A stretch of 64,000 bases of DNA. It comes from Candidatus Eiseniibacteriota bacterium (GTDB lineage: Bacteria; Eisenbacteria; RBG-16-71-46; JABDJR01). This document shows, in pieces, positions 4,308 through 58,041 of this stretch. The first letter of the stretch is position 1. Every line of letters begins with the position of its first letter. A program made the position numbers and the translations under genes. The notes below the pieces were generated by a model that worked only from the letters and a program-made list of their open reading frames with translations, had not been told where the DNA came from and made no database searches. Location: assembly GCA_942491735.1 (NCBI GenBank), contig CALOCN010000001.1:832040-896039 (forward strand), given 5' to 3'.

Positions 4308-4405
4308 CCTGTCACGCTTTTCCCGGGAACCCGTACTCCTCCCGCTTCACGCGGGGGTCGTCTTGGTTTGGCCTCCGCCCTGCTCTTACGCCAGGAGGAG
4401 ATCTC

Positions 4406-38039: not shown

Positions 38040-39458
38040 TCACGTTTCGGACCGACGGGACTCGATTCCCAACCGGCGCATCTTCCGGTGAAGGTTGGCC
38101 CGGTCGATGCCAAGGGTCCGCGCAGCCTGGCTGACGTTGCCGGCGGCCCGATCGAGTTCCTGCTGCAGGATTTCCCGCTCGGCCGCCTCCAACATGCGCT
38201 TGAGCAGGCCCTCGGAGGCATCCCCATCCACATCCAGTTCCAGGCTCATGTTCATGCCGGTCCCGCCCGGTTCCTGACCCAGCAGGCTCGCTACCTGCTC
38301 GGGGCCCACCACCGGCGAGGGGGTCATGATGACCAGGCGTTCCATGAGGTTGCGCAGTTCGCGCACGTTGCCGGGCCAGGAGTGGCGTTCCAGGAGGGCC
38401 ATCGCGGGCGGGGTGATCTCCATGTCGGGGCGACCGTATTCCTCGCGGAAGTACCCCAGATAGTGCTCGGCCAGTTGTGCCACATCACCGGCGTGGTCGC
38501 GCAGAGCAGGGACCAGGATGGGGAGGACGTTGAGGCGGTAGAACAGATCCTGGCGGAAGGAGCCGTCGGTGGAGGCCTTCTTGAGATCCTGGTTGGTGGC
38601 GGCGATGATGCGGGCGTCGAAGGCGTGGATCTTGGTGCCCCCCACCCGCTCGAACTCGTTGGACTCGAGCGCCCGCAGCAGCTTGGCCTGGGCTTCCAGG
38701 TTCATGTCGCCGATCTCGTCCAGGAACAGCGTACCGCCGTGGGCCAGTTCCAGCTTGCCCTTCTTGAGCGCATCGGCTCCGGTGAACGCGCCTTTCTCGT
38801 GACCAAAGAGCTCGCTTTCCACCAGGTCGCGGGGGATGGCGGCGCAGTTGAGACGAACAAAAGGCCCGTCCAGCCGGGCGCTCATGTCGTGGATGGCCCG
38901 CGCCACCAGCTCCTTGCCCACGCCGTTCTCCCCCAGGATGAGCACCTTGGCCGGGGTGGGAGCGGCCCGGGTGATCAGGGCGCGCAGTTCCTCCATGGGC
39001 TTGCTGTCCCCGACCAGGCGGTGCAGCGCGCCCGCCTCCTCCTTCAGGGCGAGGTTCTGCCGACGCAGCGAGTGCATCTGCAGGGCCCTCTCCACGGTGA
39101 TCCCCAGGCGTTCCGGGGTGAATCCCTTCTCGAGAAAGTCGAACGCGCCCAGCCGTACCGCTTCGACCGCCAGCTCGATGGTCCCGTGGCCGCTCATCAT
39201 GATGACCGGATGTTCCCGGGTGATGTCCTCGCGCCGTTCCAGGAAGGCGACGCCGTCCTCGCCCGGCATGCGCACGTCCAGGAGGATCACATCCACCGTG
39301 GCGCCGTGCTTGGCCAGCACCTTCTCCGCCTCCGCGGGGTCCTTGCTCTCCAGCACCCGGTACCCCTCGTCGGTGAGGTACCCGGCGAGGGAGCTGCGGA
39401 CGCGGGCCTCATCATCGACGATGAGTACGGTGCGACGGGGTTCGTCCCGCGAGCTCAT
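38040..39458 (-). CDS. Sigma-54-dependent Fis-family response regulator (NtrC-like).
   Basis: The receiver domain has VLIVDDE...D...; the sigma-54 interaction domain has GENGVGKELVARAIH and the GAFTGA motif (EKGAFTGA). The C-terminal Fis HTH is ...QAARTLGIDRANLHRKMRRLGI. Confidence 0.9.
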   Translation of the reverse strand: MSSRDEPRRTVLIVDDEARVRSSLAGYLTDEGYRVLESKDPAEAEKVLAKHGATVDVILLDVRMPGEDGVAFLERREDITREHPVIMMSGHGTIELAVEAVRLGAFDFLEKGFTPERLGITVERALQMHSLRRQNLALKEEAGALHRLVGDSKPMEELRALITRAAPTPAKVLILGENGVGKELVARAIHDMSARLDGPFVRLNCAAIPRDLVESELFGHEKGAFTGADALKKGKLELAHGGTLFLDEIGDMNLEAQAKLLRALESNEFERVGGTKIHAFDARIIAATNQDLKKASTDGSFRQDLFYRLNVLPILVPALRDHAGDVAQLAEHYLGYFREEYGRPDMEITPPAMALLERHSWPGNVRELRNLMERLVIMTPSPVVGPEQVASLLGQEPGGTGMNMSLELDVDGDASEGLLKRMLEAAEREILQQELDRAAGNVSQAARTLGIDRANLHRKMRRLGIESRRSET

Positions 39459-41014
39459 GGGGCCTCCTGGGCAGTGGGGTCGGGGTGTACCGAATCGGGG
39501 CGTTTGCGACGCGGCAGAAGCAGGGTAACCCGCGCGCCCCCCTCTGCGCGATCCTCCAGGAGCAGGGTTCCGGCGTGTTGGAGCATGGTGCGCTGCACAA
39601 GGCTCAGCCCGAGACCGGTTCCGTGTTCCTTCGTGGTGTAGTACGGCTCAAGGCTCAGGTTCGGGTCGGCGTCCGGCCAGCCGGCCCCTTCATCCTCGAT
39701 CCGCACCTGGACCTGATCGGGTCGGCTCTCCACCGTGACCCGGACCGTGCCCTGGGGCGGGCTGGCCTCGGTGGCGTTCTTGAGCAGGTTGGTCAGCGCC
39801 TGGCGCAGCAGGGTGCGGTCGCCGTCGATGGTCAGATCGGTCTTCGGGTCGACCTCGACCTGGATCCGCGGATCCGTCTCCCGGAACCCCGCGGCGGTGG
39901 AGGCCACCAGCTCGCCGAGATCAATCGGGGCGAGCTCGGCCACCGGCAGGCGGGCCAACTCGCTGAACGAGGCGGCCAGCCGCTTGAGCCCTTCCACCTC
40001 GTCCATGACCGTGGACAGGGAGGCCAGGAAACGCTCCCGCTCCGTGTCGGGGAGCGACTCGGTGGCGCGCTTCACCCGGTGCAGGGAGAAGGTGATGGGA
40101 GTCAGTGCATTCTTGATTTCGTGCGCCACCCGCCGGGCCACGTCGCGCCAGGCGGCGAGACGCTCGGCCTGGGCCAGCTCCCGGCGCGAGCGGGCCAACT
40201 CACCGGCCATGGCGTTGAAGGTGTTGGTCAGGTCGCGCATCTCGGCCGGACCCTGGGGCGCCACGTGGACCACGTCATCCCCCTGGGCCAGCTTCTGCAT
40301 GCCGTCCGCCAGGGCGACCACCGGACGACTCACCCGGGCCGCGAGGAGGGTGGCGACCCCGGTCGCGCCCAGACCCAGGACGATCACGATGACCACGACC
40401 AGAAGCATGACCGCCCGTTGGTTCACCTTCTTGAGCGCGGCAACCTGGCTGTAGAGGGTGTAGCCGCGGGAGAGCTGGTCCAGGCGTCCATAGAATCCCT
40501 GGTTGAGATAGATGCCGGTAACCAGCACCTCCTCCTGGCCGGCCGGATCCCCGCGGAGCCCCACGTGGGCCAACAGGTCCAGCGACTTGACCTCGAGAAA
40601 CTCGGCCCGGGCGGGATCGACACCGGCCAGGGGCCCGGGCCCCGCCAGGAGCGGGTCGCGGGTGGTTTCGAAGAGCAGGGTGCCGTCCGTGCTGTAGACC
40701 TGGAGAAAGTCGAGGTTGTACGCGGTGGCCAGACGCTCACGCACCGCCGCCTCCCGGTCCGGGGCGTCCAGGGCGGGATCCGCGGCCAGGAGCTGTCCGC
40801 GCTGGCGAAGATCGTTCTTGGTTCGGGTGACCAGATTGCGCGCGACCTCGAGGCTTCCGGAGAGCGCCGCCTGGACGCTGGGGTTCTCCCACCGGTCGAG
40901 GGCGGAGAGCAGTTGCTGGGTCGCGGCCAGGGTGAGGAGCAGGGAGGGGACGAGGGTCAGGAGCAGAAACAGCAGTCTGAGTTGCGACTTGAGCGTGGCG
41001 AACAGACGGAACAT
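39455..41014 (-). CDS. Sensor histidine kinase (membrane-bound, NtrY-like).
   Basis: It has an N-terminal TM segment and the H-box HEIKNALTPI. The G-box is GTGLGLSLV. It overlaps the response regulator gene by 4 nt. Confidence 0.85.
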   Translation of the reverse strand: MFRLFATLKSQLRLLFLLLTLVPSLLLTLAATQQLLSALDRWENPSVQAALSGSLEVARNLVTRTKNDLRQRGQLLAADPALDAPDREAAVRERLATAYNLDFLQVYSTDGTLLFETTRDPLLAGPGPLAGVDPARAEFLEVKSLDLLAHVGLRGDPAGQEEVLVTGIYLNQGFYGRLDQLSRGYTLYSQVAALKKVNQRAVMLLVVVIVIVLGLGATGVATLLAARVSRPVVALADGMQKLAQGDDVVHVAPQGPAEMRDLTNTFNAMAGELARSRRELAQAERLAAWRDVARRVAHEIKNALTPITFSLHRVKRATESLPDTERERFLASLSTVMDEVEGLKRLAASFSELARLPVAELAPIDLGELVASTAAGFRETDPRIQVEVDPKTDLTIDGDRTLLRQALTNLLKNATEASPPQGTVRVTVESRPDQVQVRIEDEGAGWPDADPNLSLEPYYTTKEHGTGLGLSLVQRTMLQHAGTLLLEDRAEGGARVTLLLPRRKRPDSVHPDPTAQEAP

Positions 41015-42077: not shown

Positions 42078-42243
42078 GGTTGTAACTGGACTCCGGATAG
42101 GGGCTTGTGCAGCATAGCAACCCGGCGGAAGCGGGGCCAGCGCCGGGAACCCCCTTGATCCCGGGCGAGGACAGGTCCAAAATGAACTAATGCATTCACA
42201 TTTGTTGATGTGATTGTGCGGGACTCTTGGCGGGAGACGACGC

Positions 42244-42654
42244 ATGCACCCCAACCGACTCGTTCCCTTGCTCAAGGCGTTGGCCGAGCCCAATCGCCTG
42301 CAGTTGGTACTCCACCTTGCGGACGGGGAATCCGGTCCCGGGGACCTGGCCCACGAGTTGGGGATGAACCAGCCCAGCATTTCCCGCCATGTCCGGATCC
42401 TGCGCGATGCCGGGGTGGTGGTGGAACGACGATCCGGGCGAAACGCTTATTATTCGTTGGAAGACAACGAGTTGGTGGATTCGGTGCTGGACGTTCTGGG
42501 GCACGGTCCCGCGCGAAGGCCGATTCCCCCCGGTCTTGGGGCGACCCGGCCCGACCCCGATGCCTCCGATTCCGTCCCGGAGCCACCGGGTGACGCCGAA
42601 CCCTCGGCCGACACCCCCTCCCGGGATCGGGACATCGAGGAGTGGTTGCTCTGA
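42244..42654 (+). CDS. ArsR/SmtB-family transcriptional regulator.
   Basis: It has LLKALAEPNRLQLVLHLADGESGPGDLAHELGMNQPSISRHVRILRDAGVV, a winged HTH. Confidence 0.75.
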   Translation: MHPNRLVPLLKALAEPNRLQLVLHLADGESGPGDLAHELGMNQPSISRHVRILRDAGVVVERRSGRNAYYSLEDNELVDSVLDVLGHGPARRPIPPGLGATRPDPDASDSVPEPPGDAEPSADTPSRDRDIEEWLL

Positions 42655-42938: not shown

Positions 42939-43211
42939 ATGAGTTTGAAGCGTTTGGGCACTCTCCTGGCCCTCCTCGCCATGTGCTGGGGAATGATGGG
43001 GGCCTTGGGGGTGATCTACGAATCCGCCGACACTGCGCTGGGGGTAGATGTCGCGTGGGCCGGTGATAACGACCGACCTACCGCGGATGCCCCGGAGAAT
43101 GAGCCACCGGCTGAAGAAGAGGAAGACGAAGGCACGGACACCACCGACGTCACGAATCGCGTGCACGACGCCGTGGAACAGTTCGTACAGCTTCTGTCGG
43201 TCTTCTTCTAG
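42939..43211 (+). CDS. Small secreted acidic protein (90 aa), hypothetical.
   Basis: AAGGAG lies 8 nt upstream. The signal peptide is MSLKRLGTLLALLAMCWGMMGALG. An acidic stretch EEEEDEG follows. Confidence 0.45.
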   Translation: MSLKRLGTLLALLAMCWGMMGALGVIYESADTALGVDVAWAGDNDRPTADAPENEPPAEEEEDEGTDTTDVTNRVHDAVEQFVQLLSVFF

Positions 43212-43288: not shown

Positions 43289-46200
43289 ATGAAGATGAAC
43301 GGTTCCAGGAAGACGGAACACCGCGACGATAACGCAAGAGCGCTGTCGGACTCCTGGCAGGAGCTCCCGGATGCGGTGAAGTACGGCGACCTCTGCTATC
43401 AGGCCGAGCGGTACCGTGATGCGCTGGATGCCTACCTCAAGGTTCTCGCGACTCCCAAGGCGGGCATGCCGACCGCCATCGCGGCCCGGCTGCATTATCG
43501 GATCGCCATCTGCTACCAGCGTCGCGCCAATTATCGGCAGGCCCTGGACCATCTGGACAAGGCCCGGCAGGTCCTGCCGCGGCACATCGACAAGGTCCAG
43601 CTGGCTCGCATCTACGGCAGCCGCGGGCAGATCGTCTCGGAGATGGGGCAGTACAAGCGCGCCGAGCGCTACCTGACCTGGGCCAAGAAGCTCCTCAGTC
43701 GCACCACCGAGCACGAGGAGTTGGCCACCGTCGAGAACCGTCTGGGCGTCCTGTACTACCGTTCGGGGCGTCATCAGGAGGCGGCGCAGGCCTACTTCAA
43801 TGCGCTGGCCACCTACCGACGGGTGGGGGATACGCGGGGCGAGGTTCGCTCCCTCAACAACCTCGGTCTGCAACACAAGAACCTCTGCCAGTGGCGCGAG
43901 TCCATCCACTACCTGGATCAGGCGCGCACCCTGGCCGAGAAGATCGGCTACCACGAACTGCTCATCGCCACCAATCTCAACCTGGGCATTGCCCATCTCA
44001 AGATGGGCAAGTGGGAACTGGCCGAGGAGAACCTGGACACCGCCGAGCGGTTCGCCAACGAGTTCGGCGGCACCCTCAACGGGGTACTCATCAACTCGAC
44101 CCGGGGTTGCCTGCGCTTGCGCCGTCGTCAGTGGGACGACGCCGAGGAGATCCTGAGCACGGTCATCCGCACCGCCGAACGCGAAGGGTTCACCCGCGAA
44201 GGCATCATCGCCGAGGAGTTCCTGGGCGAAGTGTATCTGGAGCGGGGTGACCTGGATCGTGCGGCGGAGATCCTCGAGGGGACCCTGACCCGGGCCCGCG
44301 ACGTGGCACCCGAGTCCGACATGGTGGACGAGATCCTGCGCCGGCTGGCCGATGTCCGCCTGCGTCAGGGACGGCATGCCGAGGCGTTGCCACTCGCCCA
44401 GGAGGCCATGAACCTGGTGGAGCACAACGGCGACCGGTACGAACACCCGGTCGCCCTGAAGGTACTGGCGCTCGCGCACCTGGAACTGGGGAACCGGGAA
44501 CGGGGCGAGGCGCTGATGGACGAGGCCCTGGCCGAATTCGCCGAGGTCTCGGACCCGTACAACCGGGGTTGGGCGAACCTGCACTACGGGCAGTACCTGT
44601 CCCGCACCGCGCGGGCCAGTCACGACCCGGACGATTTCGAAAAGGCGCTGCTGCAGCTTCAGCGCGCCTATGGAGCGTTCCTCGACCTGGACGCCCGCAG
44701 CGCCGCCGCGGTGGCGGCCACGGAACGGGCGGAGCTGGAGAGCGCGTTCCAGCGTCTGGAGGAAGCCGCGTCCTATCGCAACAAGGCCCTGCGGATCCTT
44801 CCCCGGGGCACGGACCCGGAACTGGAAGCGCGTCTCCAGCAACTGGGCGTGGATCTCGAGGCCTCCATCACCGAGCGTTGGTCGGCCGGCGGGGACGTCC
44901 TCACGTCGCTGCGGGAGATGAAGCGCCTGTTCCAGGGAGCTTCCGGAACGGACGGCGTCCTGGAAGAGTTGACCCGACTCGTGGTGACCCGGTCCCGGTC
45001 CAGCCGGGGTTGTGTGGCCCATGTCTCGGAAGACGGCATCCGCATTGCCGCCGTGTACGGCTGGGCCGAACGGGAAGCCGAGGGGCTCCTCACCGGCCTG
45101 CAGACCCAGTTGATGCGTTCCAGCGGCGAGAATCGCCCCCTCTGGTCCAACAATCCCAACGAGGATCCGCAGTTCCGGTCCCTGTCCACCGCCTTCGGGA
45201 TCCGCAGCTTCGTGCTCCTTCCGCTCACCCTGACCGAGCAGCGTACCGGCTTTCTCTACGTGGACAAGACCGGCGAGAGCCTGGAAGGCGGGTACCAGGA
45301 GGGCGAGCTCAACCTGCTCACCGTCATGGCCAACCTCGCCGCCCTCACCATCGTGGAGCGGTGGAACCGTGAGCTGGCGGTCGAGAACAAGAAGCTCAAG
45401 GCGCAGATCGGCGACGCGGATGGCGAAACCCGGTTCGTGACCGCCAACTCGGATCTCAAGGAAACCCTGCGTCTGGTTTCCAAGGTGGCCAACAGCCCCG
45501 TCTCCATCCTCATCGAAGGGGAAACCGGGACCGGCAAGGGGCTCCTGTCCCAGGTCATCCACGACGCCTCCAACCGCCGGGATCGCCCGTTCGTGCAGAT
45601 CAACTGCGCCGCGCTTCCCGAGCAGCTCCTGGAGAGCGAACTCTTTGGTCATGTAAAGGGGGCCTTCACCGGCGCCACCTACAACAAGACCGGTCTGTTC
45701 AAGGAGGCCGAGGAAGGCACGCTGTTCCTGGACGAGGTGGACAAGACCAGCCTGGCCGTTCAGGCCAAGTTGCTCCACGTCATGGACGCCAAGGAAGTCC
45801 GGGCGGTGGGTTCGGTGAAGTCGTTCCGGGTCGATACCCGGGTCATCGTGGCCACCAACACCAACCTCATGGAGCGGATCAAGGCGGGCGAGTTCCTCGA
45901 GGACCTCTACTACCGTCTCAACGACTTCATCCTCCACGTGCCCCCCTTGCGGGAGCGTCGCGAGGACATCCCGCTCCTCATCGAGCACTTCCTGCGGAAG
46001 TTCTCCCGCCAGTATGAGCGCCCCGAGGTGCATCTCACTCCGGAGGCGCGTCGGGTGCTGCTGGAGCAGCAGTGGCGGGGCAATGTCCGGGAGCTGGAGA
46101 AGACCATCCGGCGCCTGGTCGTGCTCGCCGACGACGATGTGGCCGCGGGTATCGACCTCCTCCCTGCCGACCTGCTGTCCCCCGGGGCGCAACGCAAGGT

Positions 46201-46378
46201 CTCGGCATCGACCACGCTCCGCGACGAAGTGGCCAAGACGGAGCGTCGCGTGATCAGCGACGCCCTGCGCGCCAACGGGTGGAACAAGGCCCAGGTCGCG
46301 CGCGAGCTGAAGATCTCGTATCCCTGTCTTCTCAAGAAGATCAAGGACTTCGGGCTCGAGAAGCCGACCGTCGCGTAA
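43289..46378 (+). CDS. Sigma-54-dependent transcriptional activator with N-terminal TPR repeats and a GAF-like domain.
   Basis: TPR-like repeats span ~residues 30-500. The sigma-54 AAA+ domain has GETGTGKGLLSQVIH and FGHVKGAFTGA. The C-terminal Fis HTH is ...KAQVARELKISYPCLLKKI. Confidence 0.85.
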   Translation: MKMNGSRKTEHRDDNARALSDSWQELPDAVKYGDLCYQAERYRDALDAYLKVLATPKAGMPTAIAARLHYRIAICYQRRANYRQALDHLDKARQVLPRHIDKVQLARIYGSRGQIVSEMGQYKRAERYLTWAKKLLSRTTEHEELATVENRLGVLYYRSGRHQEAAQAYFNALATYRRVGDTRGEVRSLNNLGLQHKNLCQWRESIHYLDQARTLAEKIGYHELLIATNLNLGIAHLKMGKWELAEENLDTAERFANEFGGTLNGVLINSTRGCLRLRRRQWDDAEEILSTVIRTAEREGFTREGIIAEEFLGEVYLERGDLDRAAEILEGTLTRARDVAPESDMVDEILRRLADVRLRQGRHAEALPLAQEAMNLVEHNGDRYEHPVALKVLALAHLELGNRERGEALMDEALAEFAEVSDPYNRGWANLHYGQYLSRTARASHDPDDFEKALLQLQRAYGAFLDLDARSAAAVAATERAELESAFQRLEEAASYRNKALRILPRGTDPELEARLQQLGVDLEASITERWSAGGDVLTSLREMKRLFQGASGTDGVLEELTRLVVTRSRSSRGCVAHVSEDGIRIAAVYGWAEREAEGLLTGLQTQLMRSSGENRPLWSNNPNEDPQFRSLSTAFGIRSFVLLPLTLTEQRTGFLYVDKTGESLEGGYQEGELNLLTVMANLAALTIVERWNRELAVENKKLKAQIGDADGETRFVTANSDLKETLRLVSKVANSPVSILIEGETGTGKGLLSQVIHDASNRRDRPFVQINCAALPEQLLESELFGHVKGAFTGATYNKTGLFKEAEEGTLFLDEVDKTSLAVQAKLLHVMDAKEVRAVGSVKSFRVDTRVIVATNTNLMERIKAGEFLEDLYYRLNDFILHVPPLRERREDIPLLIEHFLRKFSRQYERPEVHLTPEARRVLLEQQWRGNVRELEKTIRRLVVLADDDVAAGIDLLPADLLSPGAQRKVSASTTLRDEVAKTERRVISDALRANGWNKAQVARELKISYPCLLKKIKDFGLEKPTVA

Positions 46379-46619
46379 CAACCTCCTCACAAACATGACA
46401 ACTGAGCCGGGTTCCGCCGACCCGGCCTATCAATTTGTTTTACAGGGCTAACTGCATACCGGGCCGGTTCTTGTCCGAAATGGCATTTGATGGTGGGAAC
46501 TTGGTTTATACCGCTGGTTCCGCCGCTCCCGGCGACGCACCTCCAGGGAAGCTGAAACCCTTGATCTAGCAGGCTTTCCGCCAACGGCTTAGCGGCTAAC
46601 GGGTGCAATCCCCCGAAAC

Positions 46620-46636
46620 TGGCACAGCCCCTGCAT
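46620..46636 (+). promoter_or_regulatory. Sigma-54 (-24/-12) promoter.
   Basis: The sequence TGGCACagcccCTGCAt has GG and GC elements at the canonical 10-nt spacing, matching the TGGCAC-N5-TTGCW consensus. It lies immediately upstream of the AAA ATPase ORF. Confidence 0.6.
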
Positions 46637-46646
46637 ATACAGGTGC

Positions 46647-48242
46647 GTGGAGGGGGGACCTCCAAAGCCGTCAGCCGTCGGGTTCCAGAGACGACTTGCT
46701 TTGCAGCTCAGTCGACCACCGGATCTGGAACCCGATGGTGCGGCCTTGCACCTCGCAGGGAAAGACAAGGTGATCCTCGTGCGCCGCGAGACACTCCAGG
46801 CTTTCAAAGACCAGTTTGAATACCTCGCCGATTGCTTCGAGCTCATTCGAAAGCGCGGCGACGCGTACAACATCCGCAACGAAGCCACCGAGACCGAACG
46901 CATGGTCCGGTACAGCGAACGCACCGGCTTCGAATCCGAGCGGAGCCACCTGCTCGAGATCTACCACGGCATCGAAGCCGAGGTCCGTCGCAAGGAACGG
47001 GAGATCCGCGCCCGGGTCAAGGAAACCCGATCCGGCGGAACCACGTTCCCCCTGGACGCCTTCGTCGAGCGGCACCGCCTCTCCCCGGAAGAGCTCCAGA
47101 TCCTTCTCGTGCTGCTCTACAACGAGTCGGTGGGCCGCAACCACGCCCGGTTCACCTCGGGCAACGAGATTCTCAACCTGCTTTTCCCCAACCCGGTGAG
47201 CGCGCTCAAGGCGTCGCGGTACCTGGACCTGGGGTCGACCCTGCTCGACGACGAGCTGATCCGCGTCACTTCCGACGACGAAGCGGCGAACTTCCTCCGT
47301 GCGACCTACGAGGTTTCCGAGACCACCCTCCACGAGGTGCTGGGGACCGGAGACCGCGAGACGTTCAAGGCGCGGCAGGCGGCGTCACGATCCGCACAGA
47401 CGACCGAAGGGCCGTTCCGGATCGTCACCCCGCGTGTCACCCTGGACCGCGTCGTCATGGAGGGGAAGCTTCGCGAGGGGATCGAGGAAGTCCTGTGGCA
47501 GGCCGAGGAAGGCGACCGGCTGTTCCGGCACTGGGGTCTGGACCAGGTCCTGGAGAAGGGGAAGGGGACCATCGTCCTCTTCACCGGCCCTCCAGGAACC
47601 GGCAAAACCATGACCGCCGAAGCCATGGCCCAGCACCTGGGGCGTCAGCTCTACATCGCGGACTACGCCGAACTCGAGAGCAAGTGGATCGGCGAGACCG
47701 AGAAGAACATCGTCTCCATCTTTTCCGCGGCGGCCCAGGCGGGCGCGGTCCTGCTTCTCGACGAGGCGGACGCGATCCTCTCCAGCCGTCTGGACGGCGG
47801 GCACTACAACGACCGTGCCTACAACCGTCAGGTGAGCATTCTTCTCACCGAGCTCGAGGCCTACGACGGGGTGGCCATTCTGACCACCAACCGTTCCGTG
47901 TCCCTGGACACCGGTCTCGCGCGACGCATTTCCGCCACCTTCGAGTTCGACGTGCCCACCCCGCAGGAGCGGGCCCGCATCTGGGACGGTCTGTTGCCGG
48001 CCAAGATCGGCCGGGGGCCGGATGTGAACCTCGAGGTATTGGCGAACAAGTTCGAAATGTCGGGCGGCCATATCAAGAACGCGGTGTTGACCGCGGTTCG
48101 CAAGGCGGCCCGTCGGGACGGCAAAGAGGCCGTCCTGTTGCAGAGAGATTTGGTGGAGGCGGCGGCAGCCGAGCAACTGAGCTTCCATCCGTGTTCCCGC
48201 AGGATCGGATTCCGCGAGGCACCCGCCGCTTCCTACTCTTGA
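46647..48242 (+). CDS. AAA+ family ATPase with an N-terminal helical domain. The start codon is uncertain.
   Basis: The Walker A motif is GPPGTGKTMTAEAMA and the Walker B motif is VLLLDEAD. The track GTG start at 46647 abuts the predicted sigma-54 transcription start. A downstream start (GTG ~46770 or ATG 46902) is more likely. Confidence 0.7.
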   Translation: MEGGPPKPSAVGFQRRLALQLSRPPDLEPDGAALHLAGKDKVILVRRETLQAFKDQFEYLADCFELIRKRGDAYNIRNEATETERMVRYSERTGFESERSHLLEIYHGIEAEVRRKEREIRARVKETRSGGTTFPLDAFVERHRLSPEELQILLVLLYNESVGRNHARFTSGNEILNLLFPNPVSALKASRYLDLGSTLLDDELIRVTSDDEAANFLRATYEVSETTLHEVLGTGDRETFKARQAASRSAQTTEGPFRIVTPRVTLDRVVMEGKLREGIEEVLWQAEEGDRLFRHWGLDQVLEKGKGTIVLFTGPPGTGKTMTAEAMAQHLGRQLYIADYAELESKWIGETEKNIVSIFSAAAQAGAVLLLDEADAILSSRLDGGHYNDRAYNRQVSILLTELEAYDGVAILTTNRSVSLDTGLARRISATFEFDVPTPQERARIWDGLLPAKIGRGPDVNLEVLANKFEMSGGHIKNAVLTAVRKAARRDGKEAVLLQRDLVEAAAAEQLSFHPCSRRIGFREAPAASYS

Positions 48243-48757
48243 TCGGGGGCACCGCAGGGTGTCCGCAAACGAAAATACACGGTGGGAGGCTGGGGGTCGC
48301 TCCTCCGGCCTATCCAGGCTCCGCCGGCGACCGGGTTTGTGATCCGGGCAACGGTGGGGCTCCTTCCCTGCGATTCGGGTTTCGACTCGACTCGTTTCGG
48401 TGGAGGTGCAAGTAGGGGACGGGGGTTCTATCGAGCGCAGGCCCCCGTTCCCGCCTTTCCCACTTCGGTTGCGTGAGAAACAACCGGAGACCTGTCGCCG
48501 GTTTTTCAAGATGGTTTTACCGCCGGCAGGGGTCGTTCAGATTCGTTCGGGTGTCGTGAGTTCTCGGCTCACAGACCATATATGGGGGATGTCCAGGCTG
48601 GTGCCAGAACCCTCCCGATACTCGAACTTGGAGGCGGCGTCGGACCCCTTGGCCCGACGCCGTTTCTTGTATGGGCGGTTGCTTGTTAAGGCCGTGTTAG
48701 ATTGGGGATGTTCGCCTCGATCCCACCGAGACCCACCGCCCTTCGAGGAGGACTCGG

Positions 48758-49645
48758 ATGCTGCCCAGGTGTATTTGCCTCATGGCCATCGGACTGCTGC
48801 TCCTTCTCTTCCCATTCCTGATCGGGCCTCTTCCCGCCCAGGCCGGCACCCAGGACGGTGCCGTGGTCGCCCTGCATTCGAAGGCGAGGGCCGCCAAGCC
48901 CACGCTGGTGTGTGCCGGGGATCCGGCCAGCGAGGACCCGGTGACCCAGGGGATCGCGTGTTCCGACTTTGACACGAGTCCCCAACCCTTGGAGACGGGG
49001 CGCGATGTCTATCTGGTGGTCGGCAGAGCCGACCCGGTGCCCGGGATTGCCGGGGTGTCCTGTGGCGTCCTGTACGAGAGCAGCAACGTGGGTGTTTTCG
49101 ACTGGACCCTGTGTGCGGATCTGGAGTTCCCGTCCGGCGGTTGGCCCGCTTCCGGGGCCGGCAATCGGATCACCTGGATTGCCGCCACCAATTGCCAGAC
49201 CACCACGATCGGCACCGATGGGGTACACGCCGTGGCCGGGGCGTTCTACCTGTATGCCTACGGCAATGGGACGTTCGAGGTGGGACCCAATTTCAGCCTG
49301 GGTGGATTCGGTGAGTTCCGGGTCGCAGACTGCGGTGCCGCGGAGTCGGACGTCGTAACTCACGGATCGGTTGTCGGCTTTGGCGATGAGCAAGGATACA
49401 CCCCCTGTTCATTGCACGAGGTGTTTCCCTGCACGGTCCACACCCCGGACGCTCCCAAGCACTGTTGTTGCACGGACGAGTTCCCGCCGTTCGAGTACGA
49501 GTTCGTTTGGGAGCAGTACTGCGAGCATCATGAAGGCACGGTGATCACCGGCACCTGCTCGATGTCCTGTGAACAGATCTGTGCCGGCGCCGTGCCGGTG
49601 GAGCGAACCAGTTGGGGGCTGATCAAGGCGGGCCGAGGAGAGTAG
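48758..49645 (+). CDS. Secreted Cys-rich protein. It carries one copy of the ~140-aa domain shared with the 1074..4307 protein.
   Basis: The signal peptide is MLPRCICLMAIGLLLLLFPFLIGPLPAQA. The domain runs DVYLVVGRADPVPGIAGVSCGVLYESSNVGVFDWTLCADLEFPSGGWPASGAGNRITW...GAFYLYAYGNGTFEVG...VADCGAAESD...VVGFGDEQGYTPC. The C-terminal tail has 12 Cys, including CCC. Confidence 0.6.
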   Translation: MLPRCICLMAIGLLLLLFPFLIGPLPAQAGTQDGAVVALHSKARAAKPTLVCAGDPASEDPVTQGIACSDFDTSPQPLETGRDVYLVVGRADPVPGIAGVSCGVLYESSNVGVFDWTLCADLEFPSGGWPASGAGNRITWIAATNCQTTTIGTDGVHAVAGAFYLYAYGNGTFEVGPNFSLGGFGEFRVADCGAAESDVVTHGSVVGFGDEQGYTPCSLHEVFPCTVHTPDAPKHCCCTDEFPPFEYEFVWEQYCEHHEGTVITGTCSMSCEQICAGAVPVERTSWGLIKAGRGE

Positions 49646-49682
49646 CGCGGTCCCCCCGGGTGGAATCCCTGCCGGGCCACCC

Positions 49683-49702
49683 GACTTTACCCGGGTAAAG
49701 TC
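49683..49702. repeat. Perfect 20-bp palindrome GACTTTACCCGGGTAAAGTC.
   Basis: It lies between the Cys-rich protein gene and the CPBP protease gene. A pyrimidine-rich GCTTCTTCTC follows it. It may be a terminator hairpin or a dimeric-regulator operator. Confidence 0.5.
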
Positions 49703-49744
49703 GCTTCTTCTCAGCCTCCCCGGGGCGACTGCTAGACTCTCCCG

Positions 49745-50662
49745 ATGAGCGACCACCCGGTTCCGCCGCCGCCGGAGCCTGCGGATCTCCTGGATCCACC
49801 GGATCCGCCATCCGTGCCCCCCGCGGCGCCGGCCAAGCCCTTTCCCGGACTTCTCCAGTCCACCGGACTCCTTGTCCTGGTCGCGGTGGTCATGGGCATC
49901 GTCCACGTCTCGCTCCTGCTCGTCCGTGGATCGGACGCCACGGATCGTGACCTTTGGAACCTCGCCTTGGCCAACCTGGTCGGGTTCCTGGTCATTGCCT
50001 GGGCCGGTTGGAAGCGCACCCGTCGCCCGGCGGCGCGGGTGTTTGCCTTGCGGCCCTCCACCCTCCGCCTCCTGCCCCCGCTTCTCGTTGTGTCGGTCAC
50101 CGGCATGTTGGTCACCGCCTTCGGCGTGGATGCCCTGTTCGGTTTTCTTCCCCTTCCCGAGAGCATCAACGACCTGCTGGAAGAGTTCAGCGAGACCCTG
50201 AGCCACATCGTCATCACCGCACTCCCCTCGGCTATTGTCGCCGTGGTGATCGTGGCGCCGCTCTCCGAGGAGTTCTTCTTCCGCGGCCTCGTCCTGGACG
50301 GGTTCCGCAAGCGCTACGGCGACGCCCATGCCGTCGTGTTCAGCGCGTTCCTGTTCGGCTTCTTCCACCTGATTCCCACCCAGGCGGTGTACGCGTTCTT
50401 TGTCGGGCTCTTCCTGGGTTGGCTGCGTCTGCGCACCGGGTCCCTCTACCCGTGCCTCTTCGTCCATGCCGTGGTCAACGGCGTGGCCGTGGCCATCATG
50501 CGTCTGGAAGCCACCCACGAACCGCTGGAGCCCACCGGGTCCAGCCTGCCCGGGATCCTCATGGCGCTGGTCATCCTCCTCCTGGGTGCAAGGTGGCTCA
50601 GCGTCTCGCTGCCCCCCGCGTCGGCCTCGGTCCAGCCCCCGACACATCCCGCCGCCCTGTAG
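49745..50662 (+). CDS. CPBP-family intramembrane metalloprotease (CAAX protease / Abi family).
   Basis: Motif 1 is PLSEEFFFRGLV (EExxxR). Motif 2 is FGFFHL (FxxxH). Motif 3 is HAVVNG (HxxxN). Multiple TM helices are present. Confidence 0.8.
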   Translation: MSDHPVPPPPEPADLLDPPDPPSVPPAAPAKPFPGLLQSTGLLVLVAVVMGIVHVSLLLVRGSDATDRDLWNLALANLVGFLVIAWAGWKRTRRPAARVFALRPSTLRLLPPLLVVSVTGMLVTAFGVDALFGFLPLPESINDLLEEFSETLSHIVITALPSAIVAVVIVAPLSEEFFFRGLVLDGFRKRYGDAHAVVFSAFLFGFFHLIPTQAVYAFFVGLFLGWLRLRTGSLYPCLFVHAVVNGVAVAIMRLEATHEPLEPTGSSLPGILMALVILLLGARWLSVSLPPASASVQPPTHPAAL

Positions 50663-50773
50663 CACCGCTGCGACACACCCGAGGCCCGGCGACTACGGAG
50701 TCCGTCTCATCCAAGGCACGGGCATCCTGCCTACTTTGCTGCACGCCAAGTGCTTAAGGCGATATCCCTCCTT

Positions 50774-50790
50774 TGGCATCGCCCTTGCTC
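50774..50790 (+). promoter_or_regulatory. Sigma-54 (-24/-12) promoter.
   Basis: The sequence TGGCATcgcccTTGCTc has canonical GG/GC spacing. It lies ~65 nt upstream of the ATG at 50855. Confidence 0.55.
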
Positions 50791-50854
50791 TATGTGTTAG
50801 GCGAAGGCGGCACGCGCCGATTCCCGGGTGGTGCCGAAAGTCGAGGATAGAGCG

Positions 50855-51772
50855 ATGACCCACAACAACACCCAACTCCCATTGGCCCCGCGTCGCACGC
50901 GTGCGTCGTGGATCCTTGCCGGACTCGCCGGTCCCTTCCTCTTGTCCGGGTGCACCGAGACCGTGGTGGTCCCCGAGTGCGGCGTCCTGGTTCCTCCGGC
51001 CCAGGTCTACTCGGTCACCGGGGACGAAGAGGTGTGGCTCTACTGGACCCCGGTCCAGCCGGATAAGGTCGTCGAGTACGTGGTGTATCGCTCGTTCGCG
51101 GACCAGGGCCCCTACGAGGAAATCGGGCATACCCGTGGCGACACCTTCGTGGATCGCCAGGTGGTCAACGGAGCGACCTACTTCTACGCGGTGACCTCGT
51201 TGGACAATTGCGGTTTCGAGTCGGAGCTGAGCCCCGAGTCCGTGTTCGACACGCCGCGTCCCGAGGGCTATGGCGCCCAGGTGTTCGACGCCAACAGTTC
51301 CCGCTGGGAGCGCAGCGGCTGGGACTTCAGCACCTTCCGCTCCCTCCCTTGGGATCACCCGGACACCGACGTCTACTTCATCTGGGCGGATGGCGTGCCT
51401 CTCATCGTCGGGCAGGATGTCGACACCGACGTCCAGGATGCGGGCTTCGTGGGCTTCGATGCGGTGGGGTGGGCGCCCGATGGCGGCTGGAGCCCCACCG
51501 GTACCGCGGAAGCCATCTCCGGCCACTGCTACCTGGTCTGGACCCGGGACAACCACTTTGCCAAGGTGCGGGTGCTCGCGGTGAGAGACGACCGGATCAC
51601 CTTCGACTGGGGCTACCAGGTGGACCGCGGCAACCCGGAACTGGCGCCGCGGCCCGGTTTCCCCCGGATTCCCATGGGGGTGACCCCCCGATGGAGCGGG
51701 AGTCCCTCGGCCCGTCCCGCGCCCGCTTCCATGACCCCGACCCCTCGCGAGGGCACAACGAACACACATTGA
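50855..51772 (+). CDS. Lipoprotein with a fibronectin-III-like / beta-sandwich region.
   Basis: GAGGA precedes the ATG at 50855. The lipobox is FLLSGC. The segment ...VTGDEEVWLYWTPVQPDKVVEYVVYRS...GATYFYAVTSLD has an FN3-like pattern. Confidence 0.55.
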   Translation: MTHNNTQLPLAPRRTRASWILAGLAGPFLLSGCTETVVVPECGVLVPPAQVYSVTGDEEVWLYWTPVQPDKVVEYVVYRSFADQGPYEEIGHTRGDTFVDRQVVNGATYFYAVTSLDNCGFESELSPESVFDTPRPEGYGAQVFDANSSRWERSGWDFSTFRSLPWDHPDTDVYFIWADGVPLIVGQDVDTDVQDAGFVGFDAVGWAPDGGWSPTGTAEAISGHCYLVWTRDNHFAKVRVLAVRDDRITFDWGYQVDRGNPELAPRPGFPRIPMGVTPRWSGSPSARPAPASMTPTPREGTTNTH

Positions 51773-51879
51773 CCCCTTGGGGGCCGGCGCCGGTGGGTTT
51801 CTCCCCGGCTACTTCACCGGCACCGGCCCCCAAACACGTTGCTTCGCCGGTGGCAAATCGGCCCCGCCGTCGGCGAGCG

Positions 51880-51908
51880 GGCCCCCCGAACGGGGGGCCT
51901 TTTTTTTT
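51880..51908 (+). terminator. Rho-independent terminator: GC hairpin plus T-run. The T-run is interrupted by the IS insertion.
   Basis: The stem is GGCCCCCC/GGGGGGCC with loop GAAC, followed by T9 (51900-51908). The IS left end begins right after the T-run, and a T8 tract reappears after the IS right end. Confidence 0.65.
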
Positions 51909-53257
51909 GGCTCTTCCGGCTTTCGAGTGGGTGATTTTCTAGGCTGAGCGGGTCGGGTAGCCTCTGGGGAGTTCAACCCTGGAGGTGACTGGTGGACGAC
52001 AAGGCTCTCTACGCGGCGATTCTGGGCATCACGGCTCCCTGGAAGGTCGAGACGGTGGATCTGCAACTGGAGGCGGGCGAGGTCCATGTCTGGGTGGCCC
52101 TGCCCCCCAAGACGCGCTGGGTCTGTCCGGTGTGCGAGGAACGGGCGCCGATCCATGACCACAAGGAGCGCGCCTGGCGCCATCTGGACACCTGCCAGTA
52201 CCGGACGATCCTCCACGCCCGCATCCCTCGCCTGGACTGCGCCACCCACGGGATCAAGCAGCTGGAGGTGCCGTGGGCCGAAGCGGGATCCCGCTTCACC
52301 GCCCTCTTCGAAGCGCTGGTCATCGACTGGCTCGGGAAGGCGACGATCCAGGCCGTGGCGGATCAGCTGCGCCTGACCTGGGACCAGGTGGCCGGCATCC
52401 AGGAGCGCGCCGTACGCCGAGGGCTCGCTCGCCGCGTGCTCGATCCCATCGAGTACCTCGGGGTCGACGAGACCTCGTTCCGCCGCCGGCATCGCTACGT
52501 CACCGTCGTCATCGACGTGAAGAACCCTCGCGTCCTCGATGTCCAGGAGAACCGGAGGCGGGAGAGCCTCGATGCGTTCTGGAGGCAGTGGCCCGAGGCG
52601 CACAAGCAGGCGGTCGTCGCGGTGTCCATGGACATGTACGAACCTTTCATCCTGTCCACGCGGGCGGCCGTTCCCGAGGCCGAGATCGTCTTCGACAAGT
52701 TCCACATTGCCAAGAACCTCGGCGATGCCGTGGATCGCGTGCGACGTGCCGAGCACCGCGACCTGCTCGCCCGCGGCATCCCCTGGCTCAAGAAGACCAA
52801 GTACGACTGGCTGCGACACCCCAGTTCGTTCACCGACGAGCACTGGCAGCGGTTCCTCACGCTCCTGCGCCGAACTCATCTCAAGACCGCACGGGCCTGG
52901 AACCTCAAGGAGGCCTTCATGGCCATCTTCGAGTACAACGATCCGGATCGCATCGAGGAGCGGTTCGCGCACTGGTACCAGTGGGCCCGGAGAAGCCGGC
53001 TGGCTCCCTTCAAGCGCCTGGCCCTCACCCTCCGGCGACACTGGGACAGCATCCGCAGCTACTTCACCCACCGGATCACCAACGCCGCCGCCGAGATGAT
53101 CAACTCCAAGATCCAGAAGGTGAAGACCATGTCCCGCGGCTTCCGCAACCCCCAGCGCTTCCGCGCCGCCATCCTCTTCCACTGCGGCGGACTCGATCTC
53201 TACCCCAGCCAGATCAGCAAACCCTCATGATTCGCCCACACGATTCCCGGAAGAGCC
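51909..53257 (+). mobile_element. ISL3-family insertion sequence, ~1.35 kb, flanked by an 8-bp T-tract target duplication.
   Basis: The left terminal inverted repeat (IRL) is GGCTCTTCCGGctttcgagtgggtgatt. The right inverted repeat (IRR), reverse complemented, is GGCTCTTCCGGgaatcgtgtgggcgaat. The GGCTCTTC end is typical of ISL3-family elements. Flanking duplications are T9 on the left and T8 on the right. One transposase ORF is present. Confidence 0.8.
51992..53230 (+). CDS. ISL3-family transposase.
   Basis: The N-terminal zinc-finger-like segment has CPVCEERAPIHDH...C...H. The DDE_Tnp_ISL3 core has ...YLGVDETSFRRRHRYVTVVIDV... It is 412 aa. Confidence 0.85.
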   Translation: MDDKALYAAILGITAPWKVETVDLQLEAGEVHVWVALPPKTRWVCPVCEERAPIHDHKERAWRHLDTCQYRTILHARIPRLDCATHGIKQLEVPWAEAGSRFTALFEALVIDWLGKATIQAVADQLRLTWDQVAGIQERAVRRGLARRVLDPIEYLGVDETSFRRRHRYVTVVIDVKNPRVLDVQENRRRESLDAFWRQWPEAHKQAVVAVSMDMYEPFILSTRAAVPEAEIVFDKFHIAKNLGDAVDRVRRAEHRDLLARGIPWLKKTKYDWLRHPSSFTDEHWQRFLTLLRRTHLKTARAWNLKEAFMAIFEYNDPDRIEERFAHWYQWARRSRLAPFKRLALTLRRHWDSIRSYFTHRITNAAAEMINSKIQKVKTMSRGFRNPQRFRAAILFHCGGLDLYPSQISKPS

Positions 53258-53465: not shown

Positions 53466-56400
53466 ATGACCTCACGTGTTGATTTCCGGGGATGGCTCCG
53501 TCCCATCCTCCTGACCGGACTTATCCTGCTGGTGTGGGGTGGTTCGGTCCTGAGTCCCGGCCTCGTCGGTCCGGTCCTGGCCGAGACCCCGTCGGCGACC
53601 CGCGTGCCCACGCCCTGTTTCGTGCCCCCGCCCCCCCAGAAGCTGGGGTTCCAACCGGGGTCCCAGGCGCCGCTGCCCGGGAGCGAAGCCCGCGCGGCCA
53701 AGGCGCTCGCCCTTGGCGGGCCCGCCTTTGGCTATCGGGACGATCACCTCACCGGACTCCACCACCCGGCGGGGGAGCCGCGTCACTTCAACGTGATCTG
53801 CATCCTGGCCGACTTCGACGATCAGGCCATGGGCTCGGTCCTGGAAGACGCCCCCGAGGGCAAGACGATCCATGACTACTTCAACCGGGTCATGACCCAT
53901 CTGTCCCAGCAGTATTCGCAGATGTCGGACGGCCTGGTCACCATCGACTGGACCCTCACCGACAAGGTCTACCGCCTGCCGGAGCTCATGGCCTACTACG
54001 GCCTGGACGACTCCATCGCGACCCGGGAAGCGGAGCTTTGTCAGGACGCGGTGCAGACCGCGGATCCGGATATCGACTTTCGCCCCTACAACAGCTTCGT
54101 CACCTTCCACGCCGGCGGTGGTCAGGAAGCGGACATCAACGACGATTCCCACGATCAGATCTGGTCGGTGTTCTTCCGTCAGTTCGATTTCAGTTTCTGG
54201 CTGGATGCCGAGGATCGCGAGTTCGGCATTCGGACCATGGACATGGTGGGCGACGATCCGTTCTATGTGACCAGCATGGTCATCATGCCGGAGTACGAAA
54301 CCCAGGACGGATATGAGTTCGGGATGCAGGGGGTGGTGGCACACGAGTACGGGCACTCCTTCGGCATCCCCGATCTGTACGACACCACCGCCCCGGAAGG
54401 GTTCGTCTTTGCCGAGAGCCAGGGGATCGGCACCTTTGGTCTCATGGGGGCGGGCATCTGGAACGCCAACGGGTTCTTCCCGGCCGAGTTCTGTGGATGG
54501 AGCCGTTTTTACGCGGGCTGGTCCGTTCCCACCATCCTGCGCGCGGAGGCGGGTGACGGCGGGTTGGTGGAGGTGAACGCGATCCAGCACGATCGGCGGG
54601 GCGCCCTGGTCCGGATCCCCCTGGGTGGGGACGAGTACTTCCTCATCGAGAACCGCATCCGCGACTACAACGGGGACGGGGAGTTCACCTTCGACGACGC
54701 GGATTCCAGCGGCACCTTCGACTTCTGGGACGACAGCTACGCCACCATCGACGGCAACCAGGCCGAGTTCGACTGGCACCTGCCCCAGGAGTTCGGCGGG
54801 CCCACCGAGAGCCGCCCGGATGGTTCCGGCCTGCTCATCTGGCACGTGGACGAGTCGATCATGTCCACCTATCTCATGTACAACCTGGTCAACGCGGAGC
54901 CGTTGCACAAGGGGTTGGATCTCGAGGAAGCGGACGGGATCCAGGATCTGGACAAGCTGGAGTTCGTGTTCGAGGCCTTCGGGGATCCGCTCGATTCCTG
55001 GTTCGCCCCCAACGCCACCGAGTTCACCCCGGACAGCGAGCCCAACACCGACGGCTACAACGACGCCTACTCCGGGGTGTGGATCACCGACATCTCCGAA
55101 CCCGGTCCCACCATGAGCTTTCGTCTCCGCTTTGCCGATATCGAGGGGCGGGTCGGGGACTTCGTCAGCGGGTGGCCCCTGGACCTCACGGGAACGGTGG
55201 GGGATTTCCAGCCCATCACCGGCGATCTCAATCGTGACGGCATCCAGGAGATCATCATCACCGCCATGGAGACCGAGTCGGTGGGCACGGTCAGTATCTT
55301 CCGCCCGGACGGCACGCCGTACCGTGGCGAGGACGCTGTGGTCTATCGCGGCCAGGTGCGCAGCGAGCCCATCCTGGTACCCCTGGAGGGACCGGGTGAC
55401 GACCAACCCGAAGTGGTGTTCGTGGCCGGCAACGGTCTGTTCGCGATGACCGGCACCGGATCGTGGATCAACAGCCAGGGATTCCAGAGCGGGATCCCCG
55501 TGCCGTTCGCGCAGCTGGAACGGGACCCCGGCCGGGTCGAGATCTCCGCCGGGGATCTGGATCTCGACGGGCGCAACGAGGTCTATGTCGCCACTCCCAC
55601 CGCCAGCCCCATCGAGGAGATCTCCGATTGGAGCAACCTCCGCGCCTACTCGTTGACCGGCGATGGGGTCCGCATGCTGGCCGTCCAGTCCCATCGGGGC
55701 ACCATGCCCCGGGCGGCCTCGGTGGGGGACCTGGACTCGGTGGACCGGGGTCTGGGCGAACTCATCACGGTCGTCGAGGATCGTGGCAGTTCCTACCTTG
55801 CGGTGGGGCTCATCACGGGACAACTGCCCGACGACACCTACGATGTCCAGGAGGCGCGATGGAGCCCCGGCGAGGGGATCCGCCTCACCGCGCCGGTGAT
55901 CGGCGACCTCGACCGCGACGGCGTCGACGACATCATCGTCGCGGACTCCAGGGGATACGTGCATGCGCTCAACATCCGGGTCGCGACCTCGGACGGCGTG
56001 ACCAAGCTTCCCTGTCCTGCCGACGGGAACTGCGATTTCGTGGTGCCCGGTTCGGGGAACCGGCCCGAGCCCTGCTTCCACACCTCCTGCTTCAGCGAGC
56101 TGCCCGGCTGGCCGGTGGAAACCGGTTCCACCGCGGACGACGATCTCAGCCTGGCCGATGTCGACGGCGACGGGTACCTGGAAGTACTCGCCATGGGGCC
56201 CATCGACCGCCTGTGGATGATCAACTACAACGGCACCGTCAACGTGGCCACACCGGTGAACGTTGCTTCGGAGCTGAAGTTCGACGACGGCTATCTCTCC
56301 GCCCTCGTCCTGGACGCGGATCCGGCGGCCGGAGCGGAGATCGTTCTCCCGCTCTACGATGGGCAGGTCCGGGCCCTGGACTCCCGCGGCAAGAGCACCC

Positions 56401-56987: not shown

Positions 56988-57090
56988 CGTCCCCCCTGCC
57001 TGGCCGGAACCGTTCCCACGGAACGGGACGCCCCGCCCCGGATTCGCGTAGAATGGACGACACCCGTTTGGGGCGTCTGGAGGATCGATC

Positions 57091-58038: not shown

Positions 58039-58041
58039 ACC

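Follow-up and report, generated by a model that had tools for sequence, protein, structure and literature searches.

Does one sigma-54 activator drive a whole run of envelope genes on the same strand, or do such neighbours belong to separately controlled units? The question is raised by a 64-kb stretch of DNA (hereafter the window; 65% G+C) from Candidatus Eisenbacteria, a widespread uncultured soil phylum, in which the gene of an enhancer-binding protein is followed by genes for an AAA+ ATPase, a Cys-rich secreted protein, a CPBP-family intramembrane protease and a lipoprotein. A first-pass annotation had placed two sigma-54 (-24/-12) promoters, here P1 and P2, ahead of the ATPase and lipoprotein genes, and had proposed that the enhancer-binding protein controls a single co-regulated module in which the protease may process the Cys-rich protein. 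We compared the window with ten fetched loci that carry orthologues of the ATPase (L002, L003 and L103-L110, all Candidatus Eisenbacteria-like), giving 11 orthologous loci in total. At a probability of roughly 0.62, we conclude that the locus holds two neighbouring sigma-54 transcription units, each activated on its own, and that the genes lying between them are variable. The + strand gene run itself is backed by open reading frames (ORFs), Pfam matches and third-position G+C, and a literature search for Eisenbacteria together with sigma-54 found nothing.

P1 and P2 are very probably genuine sigma-54 promoters

P1 (TGGCAC-N5-CTGCA, TGGCACAGCCCCTGCA; 46620-46635, + strand, predicted start near 46646) lies 241 bp from the end of the activator ORF and 143 nt upstream of the ATPase start codon, GTG 46779. 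P2 (TGGCAT-N5-TTGCT, TGGCATCGCCCTTGCT; 50774-50789, + strand, predicted start near 50800) lies 65 nt upstream of the lipoprotein start codon, ATG 50855. In both elements the GG and GC dinucleotides are exactly 10 nt apart, and both sit in intergenic DNA in the correct orientation. The strict pattern TGGCAY-N5-YTGCW matched P1 and P2 only on both strands of the 64 kb, where 0.19 matches would be expected. The first-pass annotation was right about both elements and about the 65-nt spacing of the second; its statement that the first stands directly in front of the ATPase ORF needs correction, as a conserved 133-nt leader intervenes.

Scanning ~128,000 positions with a sigma-54 position weight matrix (PWM), whose weights roughly approximate a published compilation, placed P2 and P1 in the top tier, at 14.2 and 13.9 bits (ranks 3 and 4). 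Because the best site of a shuffled 64-kb window scores 13.8 bits on average, these scores are not decisive by themselves. What decides is the placement of the top sites and their conservation. All four top-scoring sites of the window are in the right orientation and just upstream of genes for secreted or exported proteins. Furthermore, P1 is kept in 11/11 orthologous loci as TGGCAC-N5-[CAG]TGC[AT], within intergenic DNA that is otherwise poorly conserved, and a GG-N10-GC element of the TGGCAC-N5-TTGC type precedes lipoprotein homologues in ~25 loci across phyla, with divergent flanks. The loci with such P2-type sites include low-GC metagenome contigs and phyla as well as a Zixibacteria genome, and some distant ones read TTGT or TTGG at -12. 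Together, these data indicate that P1 and P2 are very probably genuine sigma-54 promoters, with predicted activity; both withstand the PWM and conservation tests that the first-pass annotation had set for them.

The two promoters probably answer to different activators

The protein encoded at 43289-46378 (+ strand) carries TPR, GAF, Sigma54_activat, AAA_lid and HTH_8 domains (Pfam; PF00158 at 213 bits and PF02954 at 37 bits), a Walker A motif (GETGTGK) at residue 744 and GAFTGA at residue 791. An AAA+ core, a Fis-type helix-turn-helix (HTH) and N-terminal sensory domains make it a bacterial enhancer-binding protein of the NtrC family, in agreement with its first description as a TPR-GAF-AAA-Fis protein. 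It reached no NCBIfam equivalog cut-off and so is not NorR, NifA or RtcR; the best PADLOC matches to its AAA core were RtcR/PspF models, which reflect the common AAA core only. The gene is syntenic upstream of the ATPase gene in 10/10 loci where the upstream region is visible, and its product is a plausible regulator of P1.

P1 is preceded by a candidate activator site, A1, an AT-rich dyad (TATCAATTTGTTTTACA; 46428-46444) 192 bp upstream of the promoter. A second copy of site A (TGGGAACTTGGTTTATA; 46494-46510) lies at -126, with its right half intact and 2 mismatches in its left half. Searching for T[AG]T[ACT]AA-N5-TT[GAT]A[CT]A with 1 mismatch allowed revealed dyad A near -192 (range -167 to -205) in 10/10 loci and also at -125/-126 in 6 of them; elsewhere in ~210 kb of those loci and in the window, the pattern had no match.

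P2 has a different candidate site. Dyad B (TGTAGCA-CCGC-TGCGACA; 50658-50675) lies 116 bp upstream of the promoter, and its core pattern TGTNGC-N6-GCNACA matched twice in 64 kb against 0.05 matches expected. With up to 2 mismatches, dyad B was found at -102 to -139 of 15/17 P2-type promoters (~0.07 expected per 200 bp), a count that includes CPBP-less loci and an extra promoter ahead of a DUF4384 gene in L105. P1 had no such dyad upstream of it in the 10 loci searched. TGTGCG/CGCACA half-sites are present at distant lipoprotein loci, and in three of these (L093, L095 and L096) the gene directly upstream of the lipoprotein homologue encodes a receiver-domain (REC) type activator.

The only second copy of dyad B in the window (TGTCGCA-GGGG-TGCGACA; 38004-38021) lies 19 nt past the stop codon of an NtrC-type REC-AAA-HTH activator (38040-39458, - strand), whose partner is a HAMP histidine kinase (39455-41014, - strand; both assigned by Pfam). 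About 100 nt downstream of this copy, and just downstream of the activator/kinase gene pair, is a third sigma-54 promoter (TGGAACGACCCTTGCT; 37914-37899, - strand), which has the top PWM score of the window and stands 47 nt upstream of the gene for a 461-aa signal-peptide protein without a Pfam match. Because this dyad also accompanies the promoter next to the NtrC-type pair, P2 is probably under that system rather than under the neighbouring TPR-GAF activator. REC-type proteins have in common a recognition-helix pattern, IxRxxLxxK, that the TPR-GAF protein (ISYPCLLKKIK) does not follow. We propose that the NtrC-type two-component system probably serves P2, the lipoprotein gene and the 37914 promoter, and that the TPR-GAF activator probably serves P1 and the ATPase gene.

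Several observations accompany these regulators. In all orthologous loci, the gene immediately ahead of the TPR-GAF activator gene codes for a small protein (90-125 aa; a signal-peptide protein at 42939-43211, + strand, in the window) that has an acidic tail and either a signal peptide or a membrane-spanning segment; it may be a partner or sensor of the activator. In L106, an insertion of five opposite-strand genes (1656-6553; an FlgD_ig protein, a protein with the domain of the Cys-rich protein, a GT4 glycosyltransferase and two unknowns) separates the activator gene from the ATPase gene, and the dyad, P1 and the leader remain with the ATPase. The fourth sigma-54-like site of the window (TGGCACGCTGCTTGCC; 34685-34700, + strand) stands immediately ahead of a Por_Secre_tail gene (34713-35747) of the type IX secretion system (T9SS) kind, with a predicted start that nearly coincides with the first ATG of that gene.

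Two predicted structured RNAs flank the ATPase gene

The ATPase gene (46779-48242, + strand) encodes a winged-helix domain (WHD) and an AAA domain by Pfam. Its start was set by alignment at GTG 46779, where all 11 loci have ATG or GTG; the ORF start called mechanically, 46647, lacks such conservation. The protein matches PF00004 at 90.8 bits (cut-off 21.2) and the WHD family PF22977 at 65 bits (cut-off 27), and its nearest solved relatives in the PDB are D2 domains of Cdc48/p97 (E ~1e-35), which places it in the classical AAA clade. Orthologues number ~50, at 52-70% identity. We rejected an identity with the anti-phage ATPase IetA/IteA: the NCBIfam IteA model gave 91 bits against a cut-off of 510, and the window holds no IetS-like neighbour.

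The conserved leader that follows P1 begins, at about +4 of the predicted transcript, with an invariant hairpin, GGAGG-GGGGA-CCUCC (GGAGGGGGGACCTCC; 46649-46663, + strand), which has a 5-bp stem. The underlying 15-mer is identical in 11/11 loci, occurs once in each and is found nowhere else in the fetched sequences. Behind it lies a long imperfect stem of 25-30 bp (46667-46744, + strand), seen in individual folds and captured by a covariance model, R1, that found one copy per locus. In the R1 alignment 93% of cells were paired and 15 of 28 pairs showed compensatory changes, a level that 0/500 shuffles reached; slid registers likewise fell far below the observed pairing.

After the ATPase, every locus carries an ~80-nt hairpin and then a GC-rich terminator with a 12-14-bp stem and a U-tract. 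In the window, the hairpin (48545-48626, + strand) combines an invariant apex (CAGACC..AUGGGGGAUGUCCAGGCUGG) with covarying outer stems whose sequence differs in almost every locus, and the intrinsic terminator (48630-48675, + strand; 14-bp stem at 48630-48668) closes the ATPase unit. A second model, R2, found the hairpin in 12 loci, with 91% of cells paired, compensatory changes in 13 of 25 pairs and 0/500 shuffles reaching the observed value on all five measures. The invariant sequences of the leader and the 3' hairpin include GGAGGGGGGACCUCC and AUGGGGGAUGUCC. G-U pairs and the terminator on the same strand favour RNA over DNA as the active form of these structures.

An Rfam search of 46300-51100 at E up to 5 returned no family for either element. 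For the 3' region we rejected Chlorobi-1, a match at chance level that lies on the other strand (18 bits, threshold 50). Small ORFs were rejected as well: indels in the leader have lengths not divisible by three and its GGAGG is not followed by a start codon, and the peptides of the 3' element diverge after 5 residues and are interrupted by a 1-nt indel. Duplex energies of the 3' apex against the 5' regions of 16 window genes gave no target beyond the GC-rich background of -29 ± 3.8 kcal/mol. On the strength of covariation, the leader and the 3' hairpin are two previously undescribed structured RNA motifs, as predicted from these alignments. We offer more tentatively, as a possibility that we would not yet favour, that RNA regulates the ATPase unit, making it a type of sigma-54 cassette specific to Candidatus Eisenbacteria, and that its flanking elements represent two new regulatory RNA classes. 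The leader might then respond to a protein or ligand, for instance, and the 3' end might release a small RNA that depends on sigma-54, the two coordinating envelope genes with the separately activated lipoprotein unit.

The lipoprotein unit is often paired with DUF4384

The gene driven by P2 (50855-51772, + strand) encodes a fibronectin type III (FN3) lipoprotein with the lipobox LLSGC at residues 29-33, of which Cys33 does not vary among 46 homologues. Its family, which is unnamed, has >500 members. The AlphaFold2 model of the lipoprotein (pLDDT 84.8) shows an FN3 domain followed by a C-terminal beta-sandwich without a clear match. A strong intrinsic terminator follows the gene (51879-51900, + strand).

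A DUF4384 gene comes next after that of the lipoprotein in relatives (L002, L003, L103-L105, L108, L089, L093, L095, L097 and L112-L114), sometimes after a gap of only 6 nt and sometimes with a PEGA domain in the DUF4384 protein. In the window, an ISL3-family transposase (51992-53230, + strand; Pfam) occupies this slot; we found no remnant of DUF4384 in the window and no convincing terminal inverted repeats of the ISL3 element. Besides the terminator, an inverted repeat with 19-nt arms (51777-51833) lies ahead of the transposase gene. L105 differs in that a methyltransferase gene parts the lipoprotein and DUF4384 genes, and there DUF4384 is preceded by a sigma-54 promoter and a dyad B of its own.

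The pair of lipoprotein and DUF4384 genes, driven by sigma-54, directly precedes hrcA-grpE-dnaK in L093, L095 and L112-L114, which are low-GC loci from Zixibacteria and others. This adjacency hints at a stress-related envelope role for the pair. The literature on DUF4384 yielded incidental mentions only.

Variable genes lie between the two units

Between the ATPase terminator and P2 lie the genes for the Cys-rich protein (48758-49645, + strand) and the CPBP protease (49745-50662, + strand), as the first-pass annotation had stated, and a terminator-like hairpin (49682-49703, + strand) follows the first of them. The Cys-rich gene is found at this position in 1/11 loci, namely the window, and is absent there from L002, L003 and L103-L110. 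The CPBP gene is found in 6/11 and is absent from L105 and L107-L110, as well as from the short contig L084. No sigma-54-like site was found ahead of either gene in any locus (best PWM score 7). Judged by this comparison, the CPBP and Cys-rich genes fall outside both conserved units as variable passengers.

The Cys-rich protein (295 aa, secreted) has no Pfam match and belongs to a dispersed, multi-copy Eisenbacteria family with seven conserved Cys; the window copy has a 65-aa Cys-rich insert unique to it. The AlphaFold2 model of its core (pLDDT 81.5) has a cohesin-like fold, matching cohesins in Foldseek at E ~2e-5 with a target-normalised TM-score of ~0.6 and 7-14% identity, with no sequence-family match. 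Its 190-aa domain recurs twice in the ORF at 1014-4307 (1143-1661 and 3180-3725) and also in a 477-aa protein of L106. At its extreme C-terminus the family carries VPVExTTWGxIKxxY (49595-49645 in the window), a possible sorting or processing tag; for the window copy this tail was described as VPVExTSWGxIK.

The protease matches PF02517 (Rce1-like) at 81 bits (cut-off 22.4) and has the motifs EEFFFR, FGFFH and HAVVN, the EExxxR, FxxxH and HxxxN signature that had first been read from the sequence. It falls below every NCBIfam subfamily cut-off (MrtS 51 vs 130, MrtJ 48 vs 75, ABC-permease/CPBP fusion 106 vs 435). We rejected a myxosortase-type protease (MrtS, MrtJ, MrtX and relatives), since all these models stayed below cut-off and the neighbouring Cys-rich protein lacks a transmembrane helix. 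The suggestion that the protease processes the Cys-rich protein found no support: the C-terminus of the latter is a soluble motif without a transmembrane sorting signal of the kind used by CPBP-type sortases, and its family was not otherwise seen beside CPBP genes.

Two separate units account best for the locus

The view that the locus holds two separate units is supported by four features of the comparison, namely the hairpin and terminator behind the ATPase gene in every locus, the lack of a sigma-54 site ahead of the Cys-rich and CPBP genes, the variation between loci of the genes that separate the units, and the L105 DUF4384 gene, which brings its own promoter and dyad B when parted from the lipoprotein gene. 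That the units use different activator sites is supported by the restriction of dyad A to P1 and by the presence of dyad B at P2-type promoters and at the promoter beside the NtrC-type activator, and that they use different activators is suggested by the REC-type activators beside distant lipoprotein homologues and by the deviating recognition helix of the TPR-GAF protein.

We propose the following mechanism. The TPR-GAF activator probably senses a signal via its TPR or GAF domains, would bind the two AT-rich dyads ~190 and ~125 bp upstream of P1, and would thereby open P1, a promoter identified by sequence and conservation. The transcript of unit 1 would start with the invariant 5-bp hairpin and continue into the 25-30-bp stem, structures that are predicted by covariation, and this leader probably sets mRNA stability or translation, for example as a protective hairpin at the 5' terminus and as a target of a double-strand RNase or a platform for protein binding. 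Unit 1 is predicted to encode a Cdc48-like single-ring AAA+ unfoldase that carries a winged-helix domain at its N-terminus, and to end in the conserved 80-nt hairpin and strong terminator, which are possibly released as a small RNA derived from the 3' end. At unit 2, the GC-rich dyad ~115 bp upstream of P2 would recruit a different activator, and the likeliest one is the NtrC-type response regulator, whose gene lies 11 kb upstream. Unit 2 would drive the FN3 lipoprotein gene and, in relatives, also DUF4384, here replaced by the ISL3 insertion.

Several points weigh against this reading. An RpoN-box regular expression run over the window and all loci detected rpoN only in an unrelated deltaproteobacterial locus, so that the sigma factor itself is not in the window. 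The window's own -126 copy of dyad A is degenerate, and dyad A resembles the left half of the consensus of integration host factor (IHF), WATCAA, so it could be an architectural site rather than an activator site. Dyad B overlaps the CPBP stop codon in CPBP-bearing loci. The dyads were assigned to activators by proximity and analogy only, and the activator cores are mutually 37-41% identical in pairwise comparison and thus equally similar, a level that is uninformative about whether the distant REC-type activators are orthologues. The starts, the efficiency of termination and the extent of read-through into the Cys-rich and CPBP genes are all sequence-based predictions. The alignments used for the R1 and R2 pair counts were fitted to their models and are biased toward structure, which inflates the pairing figures. 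Finally, the invariance of the leader 15-mer without covariation would also fit a DNA operator.

How do other explanations fare against two independently activated units? The original model, in which the TPR-GAF activator drives the ATPase, Cys-rich, CPBP and lipoprotein genes as one envelope module and the protease processes the Cys-rich protein, draws on the shared strand of these genes and the two promoters that bracket them, on the intact catalytic motifs of the protease, on the C-terminal motif of the Cys-rich family as a conceivable processing signal, and on the second copy of the Cys-rich domain near the module in L106. Its control of P1 remains plausible. A single module is nonetheless very unlikely given that the two middle genes occur in 1/11 and 6/11 loci, lie behind a strong conserved terminator without a sigma-54 site and include a member of a dispersed, multi-copy family, and that the dyads upstream of P1 and P2 differ. 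A related alternative keeps the TPR-GAF protein as sole regulator of P1, P2 and the 37914 promoter, with dyad B as its true site and the AT-rich dyads as IHF-like bending or architectural elements or sites of another factor. The TPR-GAF protein is indeed the nearest activator to both promoters, some activators serve several promoters, and the half-sites of dyad A are WATCAA-like; set against this, dyad B is absent upstream of P1 in 10/10 loci, its sole other copy adjoins a REC-type activator gene, the distant lipoprotein loci pair with REC-type and not TPR-GAF activators, and dyad A differs from IHF sites in being a symmetric palindrome whose tandem copies keep fixed positions. We consider this single-activator scheme unlikely.

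It is quite unlikely, too, that the elements flanking the ATPase gene act as DNA, with GGAGG-N5-CCTCC at +4 as a repressor operator (e.g., for the syntenic ArsR-family protein) and the long palindromes as protein-binding or recombination sites. Complete invariance of the 15-mer without covariation and the synteny of the ArsR-type gene in most loci would suit an operator, but L105 and L108 keep the 15-mer unchanged without having this gene. The long stems are rich in compensatory changes and contain G-U pairs, which the other strand would have as A-C mismatches, and the 3' hairpin immediately precedes a canonical terminator on the same strand. The last alternative, that P1 and P2 are chance similarities in a GC-rich genome whose genes use other promoters, has in its favour the best shuffled-window score, ~13.8 bits on average, close to those of P1 and P2. 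The strict pattern with 2 matches seen for 0.19 expected, both intergenic and correctly oriented, the retention of GG-N10-GC in 11/11 and ~25 related loci despite divergent flanks, and the two GAFTGA activators of the window, which imply a working sigma-54 system, leave it a negligible likelihood.

Neighbouring genes

Upstream of the small signal-peptide protein and the TPR-GAF activator lies the ArsR-type regulator gene (42214-42654, + strand). Downstream of the lipoprotein unit, 53466-62139 holds a cluster of T9SS-type cargo genes that is kept in most orthologous loci: an M6 peptidase with FG-GAP and FlgD_ig domains (53466-56987, + strand), a PorV-like protein and an S8 peptidase. The M6 peptidase gene of the window has no sigma-54 site ahead of it.

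Significance and comparison with known systems

This locus gives a first sequence-level picture of sigma-54 regulation in Candidatus Eisenbacteria, with promoters, two candidate activator-site motifs and testable activator-target pairings. It connects sigma-54 control in several candidate phyla with an FN3 lipoprotein family of >500 members, for which a DUF4384 partner is usual, and it adds two covariation-supported motifs absent from Rfam that could enter RNA family collections. It also carries a caution: same-strand neighbours bracketed by two promoters are not necessarily one regulon, and comparative loci can separate the core from its passengers.

The NtrC/glnAp2 paradigm shares with this locus a GG-N10-GC promoter, palindromic sites 100-200 bp upstream and an activator, encoded close by, that has GAFTGA in its AAA+ domain and an HTH of the Fis type. 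The sensory module of the adjacent activator is TPR plus GAF here, not a receiver domain, the dyads (TATCAA-N5-TTGATA and TGTNGC-N6-GCNACA) differ from NtrC and NifA sites, the pair of A sites is spaced by 66 bp, and the targets are an AAA+ unfoldase and an envelope lipoprotein rather than nitrogen genes, in a host from an uncultured phylum. The PspF-pspA and RtcR-rtcBA cassettes are similar in that an activator gene adjoins its single presumed target unit and this adjacency is kept across genomes; the present activator lacks the CARF domain of RtcR and, unlike PspF, has N-terminal domains, and the target gene family differs.

The RNA elements and the protease have parallels as well. GlnZ-type small RNAs, processed from the 3' ends of mRNAs that depend on sigma-54, may be a parallel: here too a conserved structured element and terminator are predicted to end a sigma-54-driven mRNA, and the invariant single-stranded or apical sequence could be a seed. 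There is no sequence or Rfam relationship to GlnZ-type RNAs, and the target scan of 16 window genes was empty. The leader resembles ompA-type 5' hairpins and the RNase III leader stems of rnc and pnp in having a hairpin near the 5' end and then a near-perfect 25-30-bp stem; it differs in the sequence-invariant loop and stem of its first hairpin, which simple stabilisers would not need, and in being homologous to no Rfam family. The protease shares PF02517 and the EExxxR, FxxxH and HxxxN motifs with CPBP/Rce1-like proteases, including MroQ and the myxosortases, but it scores below the subfamily cut-offs, has no cognate protein with a C-terminal sorting signal nearby and is facultative at the locus. 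Overall, the locus combines an ordinary sigma-54 architecture, in an unstudied phylum, with two new RNA motifs.

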